Part shown: piece by piece, positions 6,972-50,500 of the stretch
How positions within the stretch are numbered: position 1 is the first letter of the stretch
Layout: each line of letters starts with the position of its first letter
From: Bacillota bacterium
GTDB taxonomy: Bacteria; Bacillota; Dehalobacteriia; UBA4068; UBA4997
Length of the DNA stretch: 64,000 nt
Direction of reading: 5' to 3'
Assembly: GCA_021769035.1 (NCBI GenBank)
Contig: JAETTP010000002.1
Coordinates: 7,189-71,188, forward strand
Translations under genes and position numbers: made by a program
The notes under the pieces: generated by a model
Seen by the model: the letters and a program-made list of their open reading frames with translations, nothing else
Told to the model about the DNA's origin: nothing
Database searches by the model: none

Positions 6972-8651
6972 TCACCGCAGCTTCCGCCCCGCCTCAATCA
7001 GCTCCTCCGCCTGGCGTTTGGTGGTGGCCGTCACCTTGTCGCCGGCCAACATTCGGCTGATCTCCTGCACCTTGGCCTCGCCGGCCAGCTCCTGCACGCC
7101 CGTCACCGTGCGGCCGTCCTGCTCGCGCTTCTCCACCAGCAGATTATTGTCCGCGTAGGCCGCCAGCACCGGCGCGTGCGTCACGCAAATGGCCTGCGTT
7201 TCCTGCGCCACCTGCACCAGCTTTTCCGCCACGCTGCCCAGGGCCCGGCCGCCCAAACCGGTGTCAATCTCATCAAAAATCAGGGTGGGCACCTCGTCAA
7301 GACTAGCCAAAATCACCTTAATTGCCAACATAATACGCGACATTTCGCCGCCGGAGGCAATCCGGGCCACCGGCTTCAACTCCTCGCCAGGGTTGGGGCT
7401 AATCATAAACTGCACCTCGTCGCAACCGTCCGCCGCCGGGGCCTTGGTCGGCAAGGCCACCGCAAATTTGGCTTTGGTCATCTGCAAATATTTCAGCTCA
7501 GCGCCAATCCGGGCCGCCAACTCCTGGCCGGCCGCCTCGCGCAGACTGTGCATCTGACCGGCCGCCTGCTGATAGTCAGCCGCCAGCTTGGCCTCGCGGC
7601 TGGCTAAATCCGCCAGATACTCCTCCCGATTCTCCCGCCGCTCCAGCTCCTGCTGATTAGCCGCCAAAATTTGCAGCAAACGGGCTTCGTCGGCATTATA
7701 TTTTTTACAAAGCGCTTTCAGAGCAAACTGCCTGGCGTTAATCTCCTCCAGACGCGCCGGGTCGTCCACAATATTCTCCCGATAATCGCGCAGCTCCAGC
7801 GCGGCGTCCTCCAACTCGTAGTACAGGCTTTGCATACGCTCCTGCAAAGGAGCCACCGCCTCGTCAAAGCGTTGCAGCTCCTCCAGCTCCCGCACCACGC
7901 CGTCCAAAGCCGCCAGCACCGCGCCATTGCCGGCGTAAAGCGCACTGTAGGCCCGGTTAGCACGCTCACTGCGCCGCTGCACGCTTTCCAGCCCGGCCGC
8001 CTCCTTGGCCAGCTCCTCCGCCTCGCCGGGGCGCAGCTTGGCCGCCGTCAGCTCCTCAATCTGAAACTGCAAAAAACGCCGCCGCTCCGCGTCATCAGCG
8101 TCCTCCTGCTGGGCCTGGGCCAGCTCCCGCGCCGTCTGCTGCCAAGCCTGATAAGCTGCCGCCACCTGCCGCCGCTGCTCGGCCACCGCCTCGCCGCCAA
8201 AGCTATCCAGCAAATGCAGCTGTTTATCCGGCTCCAGCAGGCTCACGTGCTCGCTCTGGCCGTGAATATTAATCAACAGCCGCCCCACGGATTTCAGCGC
8301 CGTCAGCGGCACCGGCTGCATATTAATCCGGCAGGAAGAACGCCCGGCCGCCTGCACCTCCCGGCTGAGAATCAGATCCTCCTCCGGGTCAATCTCCAGG
8401 CCCAGCTCGGCCAACGTTTGCTGCAAGCCGGCAGAAAAGGGCGGCGCAAACACGCCCTGCACCCGCAGCTTGTCCGCGCCCCAACGCACCTGCTCGCGCC
8501 CGGCCCGGCTGCCCAGCAGCAGAGAAACCGCGTCTAACAGCATTGATTTGCCCGCACCAGTTTCGCCAGAAAGCACATTAAGCCCCGGCTGCCACAGCAG
8601 CACAGCCTTTTCAATCAAAGCCAAATTTTCAATATAAAGCTCCGCAAACAT
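6972..8651 (-). CDS. recN: DNA repair protein RecN
   Basis: 559 aa with Walker A GETGAGKS near the N-terminus, long coiled-coil middle and an SMC-like C-terminus. Confidence 0.9.
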   Translation of the reverse strand: MFAELYIENLALIEKAVLLWQPGLNVLSGETGAGKSMLLDAVSLLLGSRAGREQVRWGADKLRVQGVFAPPFSAGLQQTLAELGLEIDPEEDLILSREVQAAGRSSCRINMQPVPLTALKSVGRLLINIHGQSEHVSLLEPDKQLHLLDSFGGEAVAEQRRQVAAAYQAWQQTARELAQAQQEDADDAERRRFLQFQIEELTAAKLRPGEAEELAKEAAGLESVQRRSERANRAYSALYAGNGAVLAALDGVVRELEELQRFDEAVAPLQERMQSLYYELEDAALELRDYRENIVDDPARLEEINARQFALKALCKKYNADEARLLQILAANQQELERRENREEYLADLASREAKLAADYQQAAGQMHSLREAAGQELAARIGAELKYLQMTKAKFAVALPTKAPAADGCDEVQFMISPNPGEELKPVARIASGGEMSRIMLAIKVILASLDEVPTLIFDEIDTGLGGRALGSVAEKLVQVAQETQAICVTHAPVLAAYADNNLLVEKREQDGRTVTGVQELAGEAKVQEISRMLAGDKVTATTKRQAEELIEAGRKLR

Positions 8652-8723
8652 TTTATTTTACCTCAATTTTATCTTACCTCAATTTCCCCGCCCTTTAATC
8701 TTCGACCCAGCTGCCGGCCGCGC

Positions 8724-38572: not shown

Positions 38573-38601
38573 AAAAATCTCTCCTTTTTACATTAAACTT
38601 T

Positions 38602-38997
38602 TTACATTAAATCTGAAAGCAGCTTAACAATCCGAGAGGTATCGGCCGTATAGCAATAATCAGTCGACACAATTCTACTATTATCCAGGATTGTAAATTG
38701 CCCAATCGCTTCATTTTCAGCACTAAAAATATTTATTACGTACAGATAACCGTTTTCGCTATGCTTAACCTTTCTTTTTATAATCGGTGACAGATCGTTC
38801 AGCTGTTGAACCAGTTGAGAAACCTCCTCGCTGTCCGCAATCCTGGCCTGCGCACCGCTCAAGCCGTCCAATACGTCAACATACGCGCCAGCAGAGGCGG
38901 TTAGCTCAAACCGGCCTGGCAAAGCGTACCGCAACCCGGCTGCTACCAACAACGCAAGCAACAACAGCCATAGCAATTTTCGCTTTTGATGCACCAT
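38602..38997 (-). CDS. hypothetical membrane-anchored protein
   Basis: N-terminal TM/signal anchor LLWLLLLALLVAAGL. Confidence 0.45.
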   Translation of the reverse strand: MVHQKRKLLWLLLLALLVAAGLRYALPGRFELTASAGAYVDVLDGLSGAQARIADSEEVSQLVQQLNDLSPIIKRKVKHSENGYLYVINIFSAENEAIGQFTILDNSRIVSTDYCYTADTSRIVKLLSDLM

Positions 38998-44212: not shown

Positions 44213-44911
44213 ATGCCAAAAAAAATTGCCATAATGACCGCAATGGCGGAGGAAATGGAGCCATTGCGCGCGGCCCTGCACCCCAAGGAGATTTACCGCA
44301 ACAAGATGGTGTGCATTGAACAGGCTGGCGATTTGCTGCTGCTGCAATCCGGCATCGGCAAGGCCAACGCGGCCGCCGCCTGCGCCCTGCTGTTTCAGCT
44401 TTTTCAGCCGGCGGCCCTGCTGAACATCGGCTCCGCCGGCGGCTTTGCGCGCGATTTGCACCTTGGCGACATAGTGGTGGCTACGGAAATGCTCTATAGC
44501 GATGCGGACGCCACCTGCTTCAACTATCAGCTGGGCCAAGTGCCCCAAATGCCGCCCGCTTACCCGGCCGCGCCCTGGCTGCTGAACGCCGCCAAGGCCA
44601 CTGCCCGCCTGCCCCGCTTTGCCGGCCACATCCACTTTGGTCAGGTGCTCACCTCCGATAGCTTTATGAGCAGCCCCAGCCTGGCTAACCGCCTGCGCCA
44701 AACATTCCCGCAGGCCCTGGCTTCCGATATGGAGGGTTGCGCCGCCGCCCAAATCGCTTACATCTTTAGCAGGCCCTTTTTGAACCTGCGCTCCATCTCG
44801 GATATCGCCGGCGAGGAGGCCGCCGCCAGCTTTGACGATAACCTGGAACTGGCCGCCAAACGGGCGGTGCATTTTTGCTGCACCCTGCTTGACCGCCTGC
44901 GGCAGGCTTAA
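44213..44911 (+). CDS. mtnN: 5'-methylthioadenosine/S-adenosylhomocysteine nucleosidase
   Basis: GGGAGG RBS then ATG 44213. PNP/UDP-phosphorylase fold (IAIMTAMAEE...SGIGKANAA). Confidence 0.8.
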   Translation: MPKKIAIMTAMAEEMEPLRAALHPKEIYRNKMVCIEQAGDLLLLQSGIGKANAAAACALLFQLFQPAALLNIGSAGGFARDLHLGDIVVATEMLYSDADATCFNYQLGQVPQMPPAYPAAPWLLNAAKATARLPRFAGHIHFGQVLTSDSFMSSPSLANRLRQTFPQALASDMEGCAAAQIAYIFSRPFLNLRSISDIAGEEAAASFDDNLELAAKRAVHFCCTLLDRLRQA

Positions 44912-45243
44912 AGCCGCTTATATTGCAGCAGTTGACGCAGCAGAACCAAAAGAGCCTGCTGCTCCCGCGGTGGGCATTCCTGCACCAGCTGATAAATTTC
45001 CTCAGCCGGGCCGGGCTGGCTGGCTGGATTGGGCAAATGCGCAAAAAGCTGCGCCGCCGGCACGTCCAGCGCGTTAGCCAGCTTGCAAATGCTTTCGATT
45101 GTAGCGTTTTTTTCGCCGCGCTCCAGCTGGCCGATATAGGTCGGGTGCATATCAGCCTGCTCCGCCAAACGCTCCTGGGTAAGCCCAGCCGCAATCCGCA
45201 GGCTGCGCAGACGCTCGCCAATTTGCTTGCTTAGTTGTGACAT
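44908..45243 (-). CDS. XRE-family HTH transcriptional regulator
   Basis: LTQERLAEQADMHPTYIGQLERGE. Confidence 0.7.
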   Translation of the reverse strand: MSQLSKQIGERLRSLRIAAGLTQERLAEQADMHPTYIGQLERGEKNATIESICKLANALDVPAAQLFAHLPNPASQPGPAEEIYQLVQECPPREQQALLVLLRQLLQYKRL

Positions 45244-45483
45244 ATTCTTCCCTCTTTGCCGAATTCATTATAACTCACTTTCTATACTACAAATATTATA
45301 ACCAACATTAAATATACTATTGATATTTGTTTGCTTTTGTTATATACTATAAGTATTATTTGCCGCAAAAATCCCGCATATAAATAGTGCAATGGGTTCC
45401 CGAAAGGAGATTTGGGTATAGAGTGTGAGCATAAAAGCCGGCGCAGTCAAGAGGGAACACCATGGCAAATAAGGCTGCCCGGC

Positions 45484-45531
45484 CTCTTAAAAAACTAAAA
45501 GACCCCTGGGAGAAAATCCTCCAGGGGTCTT
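45484..45531 (-). terminator. intrinsic terminator of pyrB
   Basis: 12-bp stem AGACCCCTGGAG/CTCCAGGGGTCT, followed on the minus strand by TTTTAGTTTTTT. Confidence 0.6.
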
Positions 45532-45555
45532 GCTATTCTATCCGTTATTCGGGGT

Positions 45556-46560
45556 TTACTCCGCCCATTCCGGCTTAAATGCGCCTTTCACCCGGCCGGC
45601 GGTCATCGCCAGCAGCGCCATCCGCACAAACAGGCCGTTGCCAGCCTGCCGGAAGTAAGCCGCGCCGGGATAATCGTCCACCGCCAGAGCAATCTCGTTC
45701 ACTCTGGGCAGGGCGTGCATAATCACCGCGCCGGGCTTCAAATGCTGCAAGGTTTCCTCCGTCATCAAATACATATCCTTCACAGCCTCGTATTCCGCCA
45801 GATCGGCAAAACGCTCTTTCTGCACCCGCGTCATATAGACAATATCCGCTTCGGCCACCGCCTCGTTAATGCTCTGGCAAAAGTCCACCTGCACGCCGCC
45901 GGCTTGCAGCTTGCGCACAATGCTCTCCGGCATTTTAAGCTCGTCCGGGCTGGCTAAAATCAGGCGGCATCTGTAATACTTCAAAAAGTCCACCAGGGAA
46001 TGAACAGTGCGGCCATATTTGAGGTCGCCAATCAGGGCCACCGCCAAGCCCTCCGGGCTGCCCTTTTCCTTAACAATCGTATACATATCCAGCAAGGCCT
46101 GGCTGGGGTGCTGGCCAAAGCCGTCGCCGGCGTTAATCACCGGGTGAGTGGCCGCCTCCGCCGCAATCTGGGCGTCGCCCGTCTGTGGGCTGCGGATTAC
46201 AATCACGTCCGCGTAATTGTTGACTATTTTAATCGTGTCGTGTACGGTTTCGCCTTTGGAGGTGGAACTGATTCGGTTCTCCGGCGATTCCGCCAGCGTA
46301 ATCACCCGGCCTCCCAGCCGGTGCATAGCAGTTTCAAAGGAGAGTCTGGTGCGGGTGGAGGGCTCAAAAAACAGCGCCGCCATCACCCGGCCGTCCATAT
46401 CCCAAAGCCGCCGGCCCTCGGCCAGGGCTTGCTCATAAAAGCCGGCCACGCCCAGCACAGCCTCCAGCTCCGCCTGGCTGAACTGCTCCGCACTCAAAAT
46501 ATCCTTGCCAACAAAGCTGGCCAGCATTTCCTCACTGGGAAACTTAAAATCACTCAGCAT
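45556..46560 (-). CDS. pyrB: aspartate carbamoyltransferase catalytic subunit
   Basis: STRTR carbamoyl-phosphate motif, HPSQ and GDLKYGRTVHS motifs typical of the ATCase/OTCase family. PyrB-like length. Confidence 0.75.
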   Translation of the reverse strand: MLSDFKFPSEEMLASFVGKDILSAEQFSQAELEAVLGVAGFYEQALAEGRRLWDMDGRVMAALFFEPSTRTRLSFETAMHRLGGRVITLAESPENRISSTSKGETVHDTIKIVNNYADVIVIRSPQTGDAQIAAEAATHPVINAGDGFGQHPSQALLDMYTIVKEKGSPEGLAVALIGDLKYGRTVHSLVDFLKYYRCRLILASPDELKMPESIVRKLQAGGVQVDFCQSINEAVAEADIVYMTRVQKERFADLAEYEAVKDMYLMTEETLQHLKPGAVIMHALPRVNEIALAVDDYPGAAYFRQAGNGLFVRMALLAMTAGRVKGAFKPEWAE

Positions 46561-46822
46561 ATTTTAAATTTACCTCCGCTATATCTTCGTACTGTCATAT
46601 CACTCACAGTCTGTCAGTTTTTACACCAACAAATTGCATTTTTTTATTTACCTCCGCTATATCTTCGTACTGACGTATCACTCACAATCTGTCAGTTTTT
46701 TCACCAACAAATTGCATTTTTTTATTTACCTCCGCTATATCTTCGTACTGACGTATCACTCACAATCTGTCAGTTTTTACACCAACAAATTGCATTTTTT
46801 TATTTACCTCCGCTATATCTTT
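46561..46822. repeat. tandem repeat, 3 full copies plus a partial of a 77/78-bp unit, filling the ileS-pyrB intergenic region
   Basis: The unit ATTTACCTCCGCTATATCTTCGTACTGACGTATCACTCACAATCTGTCAGTTTTTACACCAACAAATTGCATTTTTTT is directly visible three times, with a truncated fourth copy next to the ileS stop. Each unit carries the pyrB RBS context (GGAGGTAAAT on the minus strand). Confidence 0.8.
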
Positions 46823-46833
46823 GCGCAATTATT

Positions 46834-49572
46834 CTATTCCTCCGGCAGTTTTTCCAACACTGCCGCGCAGCGCGGGCAAACGCCGCCCTCCTCTTTGATG
46901 TCCTCGCTGTAGATCCAGCAGCGGGCGCATTTGTGGCCGTGGGCCGGCTCCACGCTGATTTCCAGCTCGCCCGCCGCTTTGGCCTCCAGCACGCACTGGG
47001 ATACGATGAACAGGTGCGGCAGCTCCGCCGCCATCTCCTGCAACAGGGCCAGCTGCTCGCCGGCCGCCTTGATAGTCACTCTGGCGTCCAGGGAGTGGCC
47101 AATCTGCTTGGCCTGGCGGGCCAATTCCAGCTGGCCGGCCACCTGCTCCTTGCAGGCCGCCAGCTTTTGCCATTTAGCGTCCAGCGCCTCGTCCAGCCAG
47201 TCCGGGTTCACCTTGGCCATATCCAGCAGCTGCACGCTTTGCAGCCCGGCCGTCCCTTTGGGCATATAACGGTAAATTTCCTCGCTGGTGAAAGCCAAAA
47301 TGGGCGTAAGCAAGCGCACCAGGGCGTTCAAAATCAGATACATAACCGTTTGAACGGAACGCCGCTGTTTATCCTCCGGCAGCTCCGCATAAAGGGTATC
47401 CTTGGTAATATCCAGGTAGAAGTTGCTCATCTCCACCACGCAGAAGCGATGAATGGCGTGGTGCACAACGTGGAACTCATAAGCGTCGTAAGCGGCAACG
47501 GTTTTTTCAATCAGCAGCTGCAAGCGGTGCAGGAACCAGCGGTCAACCTCCCGCAGTTCCTCATAAGGCAGGAAATTTTCCTCCGGGTCAAAATCATTCA
47601 GATTGGAAAGCAGGAAACGGGCCGTGTTACGGATTTTTCGATAGGTTTCGCTCACCTGCTTCAAGATATTATTGTTAATCGCCAGGTCGGAGCGATAATC
47701 CGCCGAGCTCACCCACAGGCGCAAAACGTCCGCGCCCATTTTGTTGATAACATCCAGCGGGTCCAGGGCGTTGCCCTGTGATTTGCTCATCTTGGCGCCC
47801 TTTTCGTCCACCAAAAAGCCGTGGGTCAGAACCGCCTTGTAGGGAGCCTGCCCCTTGCAGGCCACCGCGATGTTCAGGGAGGAGTTAAACCAGCCACGGT
47901 GCTGGTCGGAGCCCTCCAGATACAAGTCCGCCGGCCAGGTCAACTCCGGCCGCTGCTCCAGCACGGCCAAATGGCTGCTGCCGGAATCGAACCACACGTC
48001 CATAATATCCGTTTCCTTGCGGAAGTGGGTGCAGCCGCACTCACACTTTAGGCCGGCCGGAACCAGCTCGTCCGCCTCCTTAGCAAACCAGATGTTGGAA
48101 CCGTGTTCCGCAAACAGCTTTTGAATATGCTTAATAGTTTCGTCGTTGACAGTTTCCTTGCCGCAGTCCGCGCAGTAGAAAATCGGAATTGGCACACCCC
48201 AGGTGCGCTGCCGGGAAATGCACCAGTCGCTGCGGTCTTTCACCATATTGTAAATGCGGTCGTGTCCCCAGGCGGGAATCCACTGCACCTTGTCAATCTC
48301 AGCCAACGCCTTTTCCCGGAAGCCCTCAATGGAGCAGAACCACTGCTCCGTGGCCCGGAAGATAATCGGCTTTTTGCAACGCCAGCAATGCGGATAGGAG
48401 TGGGTAATCCATTGCAGCTTCAAAAGCGCGCCGCAAGCGTCCAGGTCTTTCACAACCTCCTTGCCGCCAGCGTTGATTTCCATTCCGGCGTACTTGCCGG
48501 CCTCCGCCGTAAAGTAGCCCCGGTTGTCCACCGGCGAGAGAACCTCCAGGCCGTAGCGCTGGCCAACCTCAAAGTCCTCCACGCCATGGCCCGGAGCGGT
48601 ATGCACGCAGCCACAGCCGGCGTCCAGCGTTACGTGGTCGCCCAGGATAACCACGGAATCCCGGTCATAAAGCGGGTGCTTGCAAACAACGCCCTCCAGC
48701 TCCTTGCCCTTAAACTCGGCCAGCACGCTGTAATCCGCAACGCCAATATCCTCGGCCACCTTAGGCAGCAGCTCCTTAGCCAGCACCAGCCGATGCTCGC
48801 CCAGCTGCACCAAAGCGTAAACGTATTCCGCGTGAATACAAATTGCCAGGTTGGCGGGGATTGTCCAGGGGGTGGTTGTCCAAATCAAAAAGCTAACATC
48901 GTCCCCCAGCAGGCCTTTGCCGTCGGTTACGGCAAATTTCACGTAGATAGAGGGGCTTTTCACGTCGGCATATTCCACCTCGGCCTCAGCCAGGGCAGTC
49001 TCACACTCCGCACACCAGTAAACCGGCTTTTTGCCCTTGTAAATGTAGCCTTTTTTCACCATCTCGCCAAAGGCGCCAATCTGAGCAGCCTCAAACTCCT
49101 TTTGCAGGGTGATGTAAGGGTGCTCCCAATCGCCGCGCACGCCCAGGCGTTTAAATTGCTCGCGCTGGGTGTTCACAAAACCGCGGGCAAATTCCTCACA
49201 TTTCTCGCGAAAGGCCACTTTGTCCTCGCTGTGCTGGTTAATGCCCAGCTGTTTGATGGCCCGCTGTTCAATCGGCAGGCCGTGGGTGTCCCAACCGGGC
49301 ACGTAGGGCGCGTCGAAGCCGGCCATGCTCTTATATTTTACGATAATATCCTTCAGCACCTTGTTCAGCACGTGGCCGGTGTGAATGTTGCCGTTGGCGT
49401 AAGGCGGGCCGTCATGCAGCACAAACTTGGGTTTGCCGGCATTGTGGGCCTGCACCAGCTGATAGATGTCCTTTTGCTGCCAAAACTGCAAAATTTCCGG
49501 CTCCCGCTGCGGCAGGTTGCCGCGCATCGGGAACTCAGTTTCCGGCAGATTAAGCGTTTTACCGTAATCCAT
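46834..49572 (-). CDS. ileS: isoleucine--tRNA ligase
   Basis: 912 aa with HIGH ([11 protein letters not shown]) and KMSKS motifs and a C-terminal zinc-binding CxxC pair. Confidence 0.95.
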
Positions 49573-49705
49573 AGTAATTTTTACTCCTAACTTTCAAAAA
49601 AATTATATTAAAATCTATCCCTAAAAACAAATTTGGGTTCAGATGTGATTTAAGGCCGCTCAGCAAGCGGCCCTCAACACAGCTATTTTTTAGCGCCCAA
49701 CCACC

Positions 49706-49978
49706 CTAAAACAGCATAACCAGTAGCCGAAACACCAAAACCTCCATAATATACAAGGCGAAAATAGCCAGCACCGGCGAAAAATCCAGCGGGAAACGCG
49801 GGCTGGGCGGCAAGATACGGCGGAAAATCCGCAAAAAAGGCTCCGTCATTTCATAAATAAAATCGGTGATCACATTACCGCGCCGCATCGGAAACCAGGA
49901 AAGAATTATGTTCGCCAACAACAGAAAATAATAAATGCGAAAAGCCACGTGCACAAAATTAAAGATAAAGCTTACCAT
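49706..49978 (-). CDS. YggT-family membrane protein
   Basis: 90-aa, two-TM YggT-like protein in the division-cluster tail. Confidence 0.7.
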   Translation of the reverse strand: MVSFIFNFVHVAFRIYYFLLLANIILSWFPMRRGNVITDFIYEMTEPFLRIFRRILPPSPRFPLDFSPVLAIFALYIMEVLVFRLLVMLF

Positions 49979-49996
49979 AGCATCACGTACCCTCTT

Positions 49997-50500
49997 TTAA
50001 CGCCGCCAAGGCGAAAAACCGCCGCCCTGGCCGCCGTCTGCTCCGCTGAAAGCCTGAACCTCCGGGTCCATAATCTGGCCGGCCAAATCAACCTGGCTGG
50101 AGCTGAACAAAAAAGTGGAACCGCTGACCTTTTTAGGCTCACCGTCCAGCGCAAAAACCGCGCCGGAAAGAAAATCCACCATGCGCTGGGCTGTTTCCTT
50201 GTCCAGATCCTCAAAATTGACAATAACCACCTTTTGCTCTTTAATATTGCGAGCAATGCTTTGCAAATCGTCATAAGCTTTGGCCTTGACCAAAACCATT
50301 TCATAGCTTTTTTTGGCCTCGGAGGCAGTGGGAATGGCCATCACCTGCGGCCGCCGTGCTTTTTGCACGTCTGCCTCCTGCCACACATCTTTTTTGGCGC
50401 CTTTGGCCAGCTCGTCCATTTCCTCCTGGTTCAAGCTGTCTTCCTCTTCGTCTTGAAAGAATATGCTGGATATTTTACTCCAAGCTCCTCCTCCTGCCAT
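49997..50500 (-). CDS. sepF: cell division protein SepF
   Basis: Conserved SepF C-terminal domain (VVIVNFEDLDKETAQRMVDFLSGAVFAL). Confidence 0.8.
   Translation of the reverse strand: MAGGGAWSKISSIFFQDEEEDSLNQEEMDELAKGAKKDVWQEADVQKARRPQVMAIPTASEAKKSYEMVLVKAKAYDDLQSIARNIKEQKVVIVNFEDLDKETAQRMVDFLSGAVFALDGEPKKVSGSTFLFSSSQVDLAGQIMDPEVQAFSGADGGQGGGFSPWRR

Follow-up and report, generated by a model that had tools for sequence, protein, structure and literature searches.

The ribosome-binding region of pyrB is repeated several times over in the spacer that separates ileS from pyrB in a gut bacterium of the Peptococcaceae (Avidehalobacter-like). This raises the question of whether the copies set the expression of pyrB or whether they form a minisatellite that carries a translation start along. 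The window, i.e. the whole stretch of DNA that was analysed, comprises 64,000 nt. The original prediction left three options: a copy-number-variable expression tuner, a leader with decoy ribosome-binding sites (RBSs) or simply a minisatellite. The last of the three fits best. With a probability of about 65%, the array is a dispensable, strain-variable minisatellite (VNTR) that arose from a duplication including the pyrB initiation region.

The ileS-pyrB junction and its repeat units

The upstream cistron is ileS, encoding isoleucine--tRNA ligase (912 aa; 46834-49572, minus strand; TIGR00392 with 1035 bits, Pfam tRNA-synt_1 and Anticodon_1), with its stop codon TAG at 46834-46836 (minus strand). 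The downstream cistron is pyrB, encoding the catalytic chain of aspartate carbamoyltransferase (334 aa; 45556-46560, minus strand; TIGR00670 with 349.7 bits at a cut-off of 237, OTCace_N and OTCace). Both genes had been named correctly, and both are on the minus strand. The gap between them is 273 nt long and consists almost entirely of tandem repeat. pyrB is solitary at the 3' side of ileS, with neither pyrI nor another pyr gene adjoining. Its ATG start is backed by MLSDFKFP, the beginning of an N-terminal extension of 18 residues (MLSDFKFP...); both are kept in relatives down to about 60% identity. The NCBI annotation of a PyrB orthologue from a junction with overlapping genes starts at Met12 (323 aa), probably in error.

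A promoter-like TTGTTT-17 nt-TATAAT was read directly in the sequence 5' of ileS (49602-49630, minus strand). It was omitted by the consensus scanner, as its -35 hexamer matches at only three of six positions. This site is likely to be the start of an ileS-pyrB transcript. An intrinsic terminator, AGACCCCTGGAG-loop-CTCCCAGGGGTCT followed by TTTTAGTTTTTT, was likewise read directly 3' of pyrB (45489-45530, minus strand); it was missed by the scanner, whose loop limit is 8 nt. The terminator is strong, and no comparable structure lies between ileS and pyrB. The promoter and terminator scans returned nothing inside any array unit. The sole promoter-like match in the spacer was TTGGAA-18-AATAAT at 46857-46828 (9 of 12 positions), which straddles the ileS stop. 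As ileS and pyrB overlap in close relatives (see the following section), pyrB is clearly served there by transcription through ileS. With this overlap, a terminator after pyrB and none in the spacer, we therefore read the array as an intercistronic region, presumably that of a bicistronic ileS-pyrB mRNA.

Further features were seen around the two genes. A GGCCGCT/AGCGGCC hairpin lies 3' of yggT and upstream of ileS (within 49602-49700, minus strand). A T-box leader before ileS is common in Firmicutes; none was found here by Rfam (scan of 45000-50500, E<=10). An AT-rich segment (45275-45350, minus strand) 5' of an XRE-family HTH gene (44908-45243, minus strand) contains a TAGTATA motif three to four times; these copies are possible operator sites.

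Tandem Repeats Finder placed the array at 46568-46821, with a period of 78, 3.3 copies, 97% matches, no indels and a score of 480. No other array in the window comes near this score. The 34-nt core of the unit occurs exactly three times (none in 100 shuffles), and the units are 96-100% identical to each other in blastn. The predicted three full copies plus a partial one, filling the spacer, were thus recovered by both programs. Of the predicted 77/78-bp unit length only the larger value held, since all periods are 78.

A non-repeated 12-nt linker, AATAATTGCGCA, separates the ileS stop from the array (46822-46833, minus strand), at just the distance given in the original prediction. Unit 1, the distal one (46743-46820, minus strand; Tandem Repeats Finder, blastn), is 78 nt long and reads AGATATAGCGGAGGTAAATAAAAAAATGCAATTTGTTGGTGTAAAAACTGACAGATTGTGAGTGATACGTCAGTACGA on the mRNA strand. 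It contains the Shine-Dalgarno sequence (SD) GGAGG at 46807-46811, a mini-ORF at 46760-46795 and a 13-bp hairpin at 46762-46793 (all minus strand). Unit 2 (46665-46742, minus strand) differs from unit 1 by 1 nt (GTGT>GTGA, V6E in the mini-ORF); its SD, mini-ORF and hairpin are at 46729-46733, 46682-46717 and 46684-46715 (minus strand). Unit 3, the proximal one (46587-46664, minus strand), differs from unit 1 by 3 nt (GATTG>GACTG and ATACGTCAGT>ATATGACAGT), with the SD at 46651-46655 and the mini-ORF at 46604-46639 (minus strand). Its peptide is the same, because TTG>CTG is synonymous. Together, the three units differ at four positions. The final partial unit of 19 nt (46568-46586, minus strand; blastn) is the working ribosome-binding region of pyrB, with GGAGG at 46573-46577, 12 nt before the pyrB ATG.

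In each full unit, GGAGG is followed by an ATG 11 nt downstream. Complementary to the anti-SD and at a workable distance from the start codon, as a decoy RBS or a translated upstream ORF (uORF) would need, this SD was found in every unit. The ATG opens the mini-ORF MQFVGVKTDRL on the pyrB strand, which ends with TGA. The anatomy of SD, ATG and mini-ORF in each unit was therefore foreseen correctly, and so was the peptide apart from V6E in unit 2, while the ORF has 11 codons plus TGA instead of ten. The first unit ATG lies 38 nt after the ileS stop, and 33 nt separate the stop of each mini-ORF from the ATG that follows. The exact repeat begins 7 nt from the pyrB ATG and not 10 nt as proposed. 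Weaker similarity of the unit to the gene continues through ATGC, and on this ground the duplication is taken to have included the pyrB initiation region.

The predicted ACTGAC/GTCAGT hairpin is present, with a loop of 16 nt rather than 17. It is overlapped by the stronger 13-bp hairpin GCAAUUUGUUGGU/ACUGACAGAUUGU, which includes four G-U pairs. In unit 3 the long hairpin is shortened to 8 bp and a new ACUGU/ACAGU hairpin is present. There is no U-tract after either hairpin.

Copy-number alleles and junctions in relatives

An exact-protein look-up of PyrB yielded 17 short-read contigs from several sequencing projects, ten of which are shown here. Five of these ten (L001, L004, L005, L007 and L008) start 79 nt upstream of the ATG, and four (L002, L006, L009 and L010) start 93 nt upstream. 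The remaining one of the ten, L003, spans ileS to pyrB with a single unit (1.3 copies) and 100% identical flanks. Two contigs with the exact IleRS (L170 and L171) end 42 nt past the ileS stop codon.

These end points were compared with a de Bruijn graph simulation (k=31) of candidate alleles. Alleles with units 1 and 3 gave exactly 79, and alleles with units 2 and 3 and no unit 1 gave exactly 93. Every allele of at least 2.3 copies gave 42, and a pass-through was obtained only for 1.3 copies. The simulated values match the contig ends, so the unit variants of the window exist in independent samples. Among bacteria with identical PyrB there are at least three array alleles: 1.3 copies, units 2 and 3 without unit 1, and units 1 and 3 (including the window type), read from Logan data that are short-read metagenomes in which strain mixtures or graph simplification could blur allele calls. 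The exact count of 3.3 is that of the window assembly alone. As in a VNTR, head-to-tail units of at least 10 bp stand at high identity (period 78, 97% matches), and strains differ by whole periods in the short-read metagenome assemblies. The copy-number variation that had been predicted was thus borne out by population data, from independent contigs as well as from relatives.

The same data bear on whether a single unit was falsely expanded during assembly. L003, which has one unit between identical flanks, would speak for this, although it could itself be a collapsed path. Against it, the three units are not identical, 11 independent contigs, drawn from four or more sequencing projects, end exactly at branch points that are set by the unit variants, and 2.5 copies were fully assembled in two metagenome-assembled genomes (MAGs) of a related species. 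An expansion artefact, which would have overturned the original prediction, is therefore not what the independent assemblies point to, as they break in the array just where multi-copy alleles predict. We regard its probability as negligible.

The loci of relatives were anchored on PyrB in species-representative genomes, metagenomes and cluster members. This comparison of the same spacer, which had been proposed as a check, revealed overlapping genes, a 44-nt spacer, and junctions of 1.3-1.5 and of 2.5 or more copies. No spacer at all was found in L011, L090, L091, L172-179, L188-195 and L225-230 (pyrB about 91-92% nt identity), where ileS reaches 11 nt into pyrB as far as its stop TGA (ATGCTGAGTGA). 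The same 11-nt overlap without a spacer occurs in L183-187, with 97.0% nt identity in pyrB and 98.8% in the 3' end of ileS; judged by their pyrB and ileS markers, these fall in the window's own lineage group. A single 44-nt spacer with one RBS segment was found in L204-213 and L219-224 (PyrB 94.3% aa identity). The form with 1.3 copies was found in L180-182 (96.8% nt identity in pyrB and 99.3% in the 3' end of ileS).

Two other species have units of slightly different length. The L029 species (with L196-203) has 1.5 copies of a 79-nt unit, and its 123-nt spacer was identical in each of the seven assemblies compared. The L012 species has 2.5 copies of an 80-nt unit, and this is the form fully assembled in two MAGs (L214 and L216). 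A scaffold gap of exactly 100 N lies inside the array in two MAG scaffolds of this mouse-gut species, L215 and L012 (L012:3865-3964), so the repeat defeats short-read assembly there too. Overall, the window's strain group holds 1.3, at least 2.3 and 3.3 copies, and the sister lineages hold 0.5, 1.5 and 2.5 or more.

An alignment of the window, L029 and L012 units covers the SD segment plus ~45 nt at the start of the unique segment, which makes the arrays homologous. Within species, the repeated segments are 89-100% alike versus roughly 60% between species. This homogenisation within species is the signature that repeated expansion and contraction, or concerted evolution, would leave. L219 is what its sister L196 would be with exactly one 79-nt period taken out. 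As the 0.5-copy forms are without the unique segment, they are contractions and not precursors. Distant relatives (82-85% PyrB) have spacers of 70-100 nt which share only a GTGTAAAA-like block.

In L021 (3925-4000; 84% PyrB), TTGCTGAA(AAAA)TTTTGGAG was seen by eye twice in a 70-nt spacer, flanking ATAGATTGGTGTAAGTTGAT; the repeat finder was silent there. An architecture of one to two copies with a degenerate upstream SD may thus be older than the inner clade. In one overlap lineage the flanking genes are 97-99% identical to those of the window, yet the last ~30 nt of ileS have diverged far more than the sequence 5' of them, which suggests that an old overlap junction haplotype was moved by recombination. 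A deletion from the GGAGG at the end of ileS to the GGAGG of the last unit was also considered as the origin of the overlap haplotype. Its length would fit (33 nt to the shared TGA); as 10 of the 13 intervening bases differ, it is no more than a candidate.

Origin and possible effects of the array

The comparison suggests the following course of events. An ancestral spacer of roughly 80 nt would have been duplicated along with the translation start of pyrB (SD, A-rich spacer and ATG). The duplication would have left two direct repeats of 20-40 nt which flank a unique segment, i.e. the state with 1.3-1.5 copies. Whole periods are then gained or lost, as the allele series shows, when the duplicated SD segments slip or recombine unequally. 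The extra units carry an SD and AUG as good as the real ones, and ribosomes probably translate the 11-codon mini-ORF as a throw-away product. Where the overlap haplotype couples translation tightly, the array would have ribosomes initiate independently at the last SD. The additional initiation sites, up to three of them, would be by-products, and they may shift the output of PyrB.

Two other small RBS-adjacent tandem duplications were seen in the window. A 16-nt unit, AAATTGAGGTAARATAAAAT, is present in 2.2 copies directly before the ATG of a RecN-like gene (6972-8651, minus strand; repeat at 8650-8685, minus strand). TTTAATGTAAAAAG is present twice at 38584-38611 (minus strand), spanning the stop of the upstream gene (38602-38997, minus strand) and abutting the SD AAAGGAGAG of the next gene (start 38572; MSDCLFCKIAA, HIT-like). 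They suggest a general tendency to slippage.

No function-bearing feature of the unit was conserved. The mini-ORF has 11 codons here, is reduced to ATG-CAG-TAA (two codons) in L012, and has AAG in place of ATG in L029. The 13-bp hairpin reached z = -3.3 in the window unit and was weakened to z = -1.8 in the proximal unit. The corresponding values in relatives were +0.94 (L029), -0.60 (L012) and -0.13 (P0004, with a 44-nt spacer). The comparison comprises three to four independent lineages. The whole spacer is also dispensable, as lineages very close to that of the window are without it. With mini-ORF and hairpin unconserved and the spacer dispensable, there is no support for a sensor, an attenuator or a conserved leader peptide. 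The overall interpretation behind the original prediction was therefore supported in part: the minisatellite and its variable copy number stood, a tuner or a decoy leader is possible, and the comparison with relatives spoke against a conserved mini-ORF and hairpin.

Several specific candidates were dropped. A conserved RNA structure was rejected, as the hairpin was significant only in the window and not in the spacers of L029, L012 and P0004. A conserved leader peptide was rejected on the ORFs of L012 and L029. A coding role of the 78-nt period (26 codons) does not go with an in-frame TGA in each unit and with periods of 79 and 80 nt in relatives. A CRP/FNR-like site or operator palindrome (ACTGAC-N16-GTCAGT) was set aside because it is lost from the proximal unit and absent in relatives.

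A pyrimidine-responsive leader would work by attenuation of the PyrR type or of the E. coli pyrBI type, through the mini-ORF and hairpin. The position directly 5' of pyrB and the short ORF and hairpin in each unit are what one would look for in such a leader. The unit also contains AATTTG, the string at the transcription start of E. coli pyrBI. The Rfam scan (cmscan, 45000-50500, E<=10), however, had no match to PyrR (RF00515), to the T-box or to any other family in the array, in line with the earlier statement that no PyrR binding loop is visible. Three sub-threshold matches lay outside the array and belonged to unrelated families (His_leader on both strands, c-di-GMP-I-GGC). Neither a terminator/antiterminator 5' of pyrB, as in PyrR attenuators, nor a conserved leader ORF coupled to a terminator, as in pyrBI of E. 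coli, was found in the array. The hairpins lack the U-tract of a terminator, ORF and hairpin vary as described, and some relatives have no leader at all. The leader reading is thus largely refuted and very improbable.

Units could also act as a tandem promoter array. Each would hold a weak promoter, with a -10-like TGTAAAAA or TGTTAAAAT in the 'GTGTAAAA' block, and more units would give more pyrB-specific transcripts independent of ileS. Within the unique segment, TTRGTGTAAAA(Y)TGA is indeed what is best conserved among the window (W), L029, L012, L013 and L021, and the block of L012 reads TGTTAAAAT, an extended -10-like string. The unit of L180-182 contains a perfect TTGACA, and the spacer is AT-rich within a GC-rich genome. 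Yet the consensus scan had no promoter in the units, its only match being the one at the ileS stop (46857-46828), and a hand search near GTGTAAAA and the TTGACA of L180-182 found no workable -35/-10 spacing. Moreover, the overlap and 44-nt haplotypes are without the segment and must still express pyrB from upstream. We therefore consider promoter activity of the units unlikely.

A mobile intercistronic element similar to MIRUs may be thought to have entered the locus at the pyrB start codon and multiplied there. The array resembles these elements in lying between co-oriented operon genes, in belonging to the 40-100 bp class, and in having variable tandem copies and a small ORF on the same strand. 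Mobility would call for a second locus, and no other copy of the unit was found in the 64-kb window (search with three mismatches; blastn-short) or in the fetched flanks. The ORF of the unit stays clear of the start and stop codons on either side. The unique segment has its homologue in the ordinary spacer of more distant relatives, hence it is local and not an insertion. An inserted element is accordingly hardly to be expected here.

The most probable of the rival readings is that of an adaptive translational rheostat or ribosome relay. The number of decoy sites (SD, AUG and uORF) would determine the supply of ribosomes to the pyrB start, and the array would be kept for this. As units are easily gained and lost, the ratio of PyrB to IleRS could be tuned heritably and reversibly, with the overlap haplotype as the fully coupled extreme. 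The SD spacing in the units, which is like that of the real site (11 versus 12 nt) and is followed by an ATG, fits this well. So do the polymorphic copy number in the strain group, where multi-copy alleles predominate, and the recurrence of the architecture in three species. In general, a uORF or an upstream RBS can increase or reduce translation of the main ORF through coupling or occlusion (PMC13285730, PMC12548453). The uORF varies in length and is even absent in places, however, and with 33 nt from its stop to the next AUG the geometry for coupling is missing. Nor is the hairpin conserved, and the array was lost repeatedly, including in a lineage of the same species. A rheostat of this kind is possible, and we think of it as a minority view. 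A more specific form seems doubtful: the junction as a heritable 'dial', with overlap, single RBS and one to three decoy sites as its settings, would adjust entry into pyrimidine synthesis versus the synthetase. The settings would be kept circulating in one gut species by slippage and recombination.

Some observations stand against a purely neutral minisatellite. At least three diverged lineages have kept the duplicated SD segment or formed it anew, and there could be weak selection for at least the form with 1.3-1.5 copies. Multi-copy alleles dominate the strain group of the window, in that nine of the ten contigs shown break and one passes through. GGAGG and ATG are intact in every full unit, and one of the three substitutions in unit 3 is synonymous in the mini-ORF. 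Still, we judge that the minisatellite would have no dedicated sensory or regulatory role, because its features are not conserved and the array is dispensable. An effect of copy number on PyrB output would be a by-product.

Significance and comparison with known systems

Even if it is only a minisatellite, the array is of use in telling apart the strains of an uncultured gut Peptococcaceae lineage. Assemblers should also beware of it, as contigs and MAG scaffolds break or carry N-gaps at the array. Near-identical strains have an 11-nt overlap, a 44-nt spacer, or 1.3-3.3 units with full decoy initiation sites. This allelic series is a natural experiment in its native context on how coupling, spacer length and decoy RBSs relate to the expression of a downstream cistron. 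The natural experiment is neat; the kind of array is known and unsurprising. Our literature searches returned no description of the ileS-pyrB array locus or of RBS-replicating arrays.

Like PyrR attenuators and the leader of E. coli pyrBI, the array lies directly 5' of pyrB and comprises a short ORF and hairpins. Unlike them, it has no PyrR loop, terminator or U-tract, and it is absent in close relatives.

Control by upstream RBSs or uORFs also involves an SD and a start codon 5' of the main start, along with short ORFs that probably do not act through their peptide (PMC13285730, PMC12548453). The difference is that the sites here are exact tandem copies of the main one in strain-variable number, and that the uORF is not conserved between species.

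MIRUs, as summarised in PMC12548453 (citing Supply et al. 1997), are tandem units of 40-100 bp between co-oriented operon genes, with variable copy number. They have a small ORF in gene direction that is thought to pass ribosomes on, they are dispersed over many loci, and the ORF overlaps the neighbouring start codon at -4 nt (PMC12548453). Measured against that description, the ileS-pyrB array is similar in lying between co-oriented minus-strand genes with a mini-ORF on the same strand. It differs in that its unit was found at one locus (64-kb window and fetched flanks) and is derived from the local spacer, and in that its ORF ends 33 nt before the next AUG without the -4 nt overlap.

The closest resemblance in kind is with the bacterial intergenic VNTRs or minisatellites used in MLVA typing. 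These too are near-identical head-to-tail units of tens of bp in intergenic regions, and their copy number differs among close strains by whole periods. At the ileS-pyrB junction, in contrast, the unit is the spacer itself and copies the RBS and start codon of the downstream gene. In addition, homologous arrays are found here in several species, beside an overlap haplotype which has no spacer.
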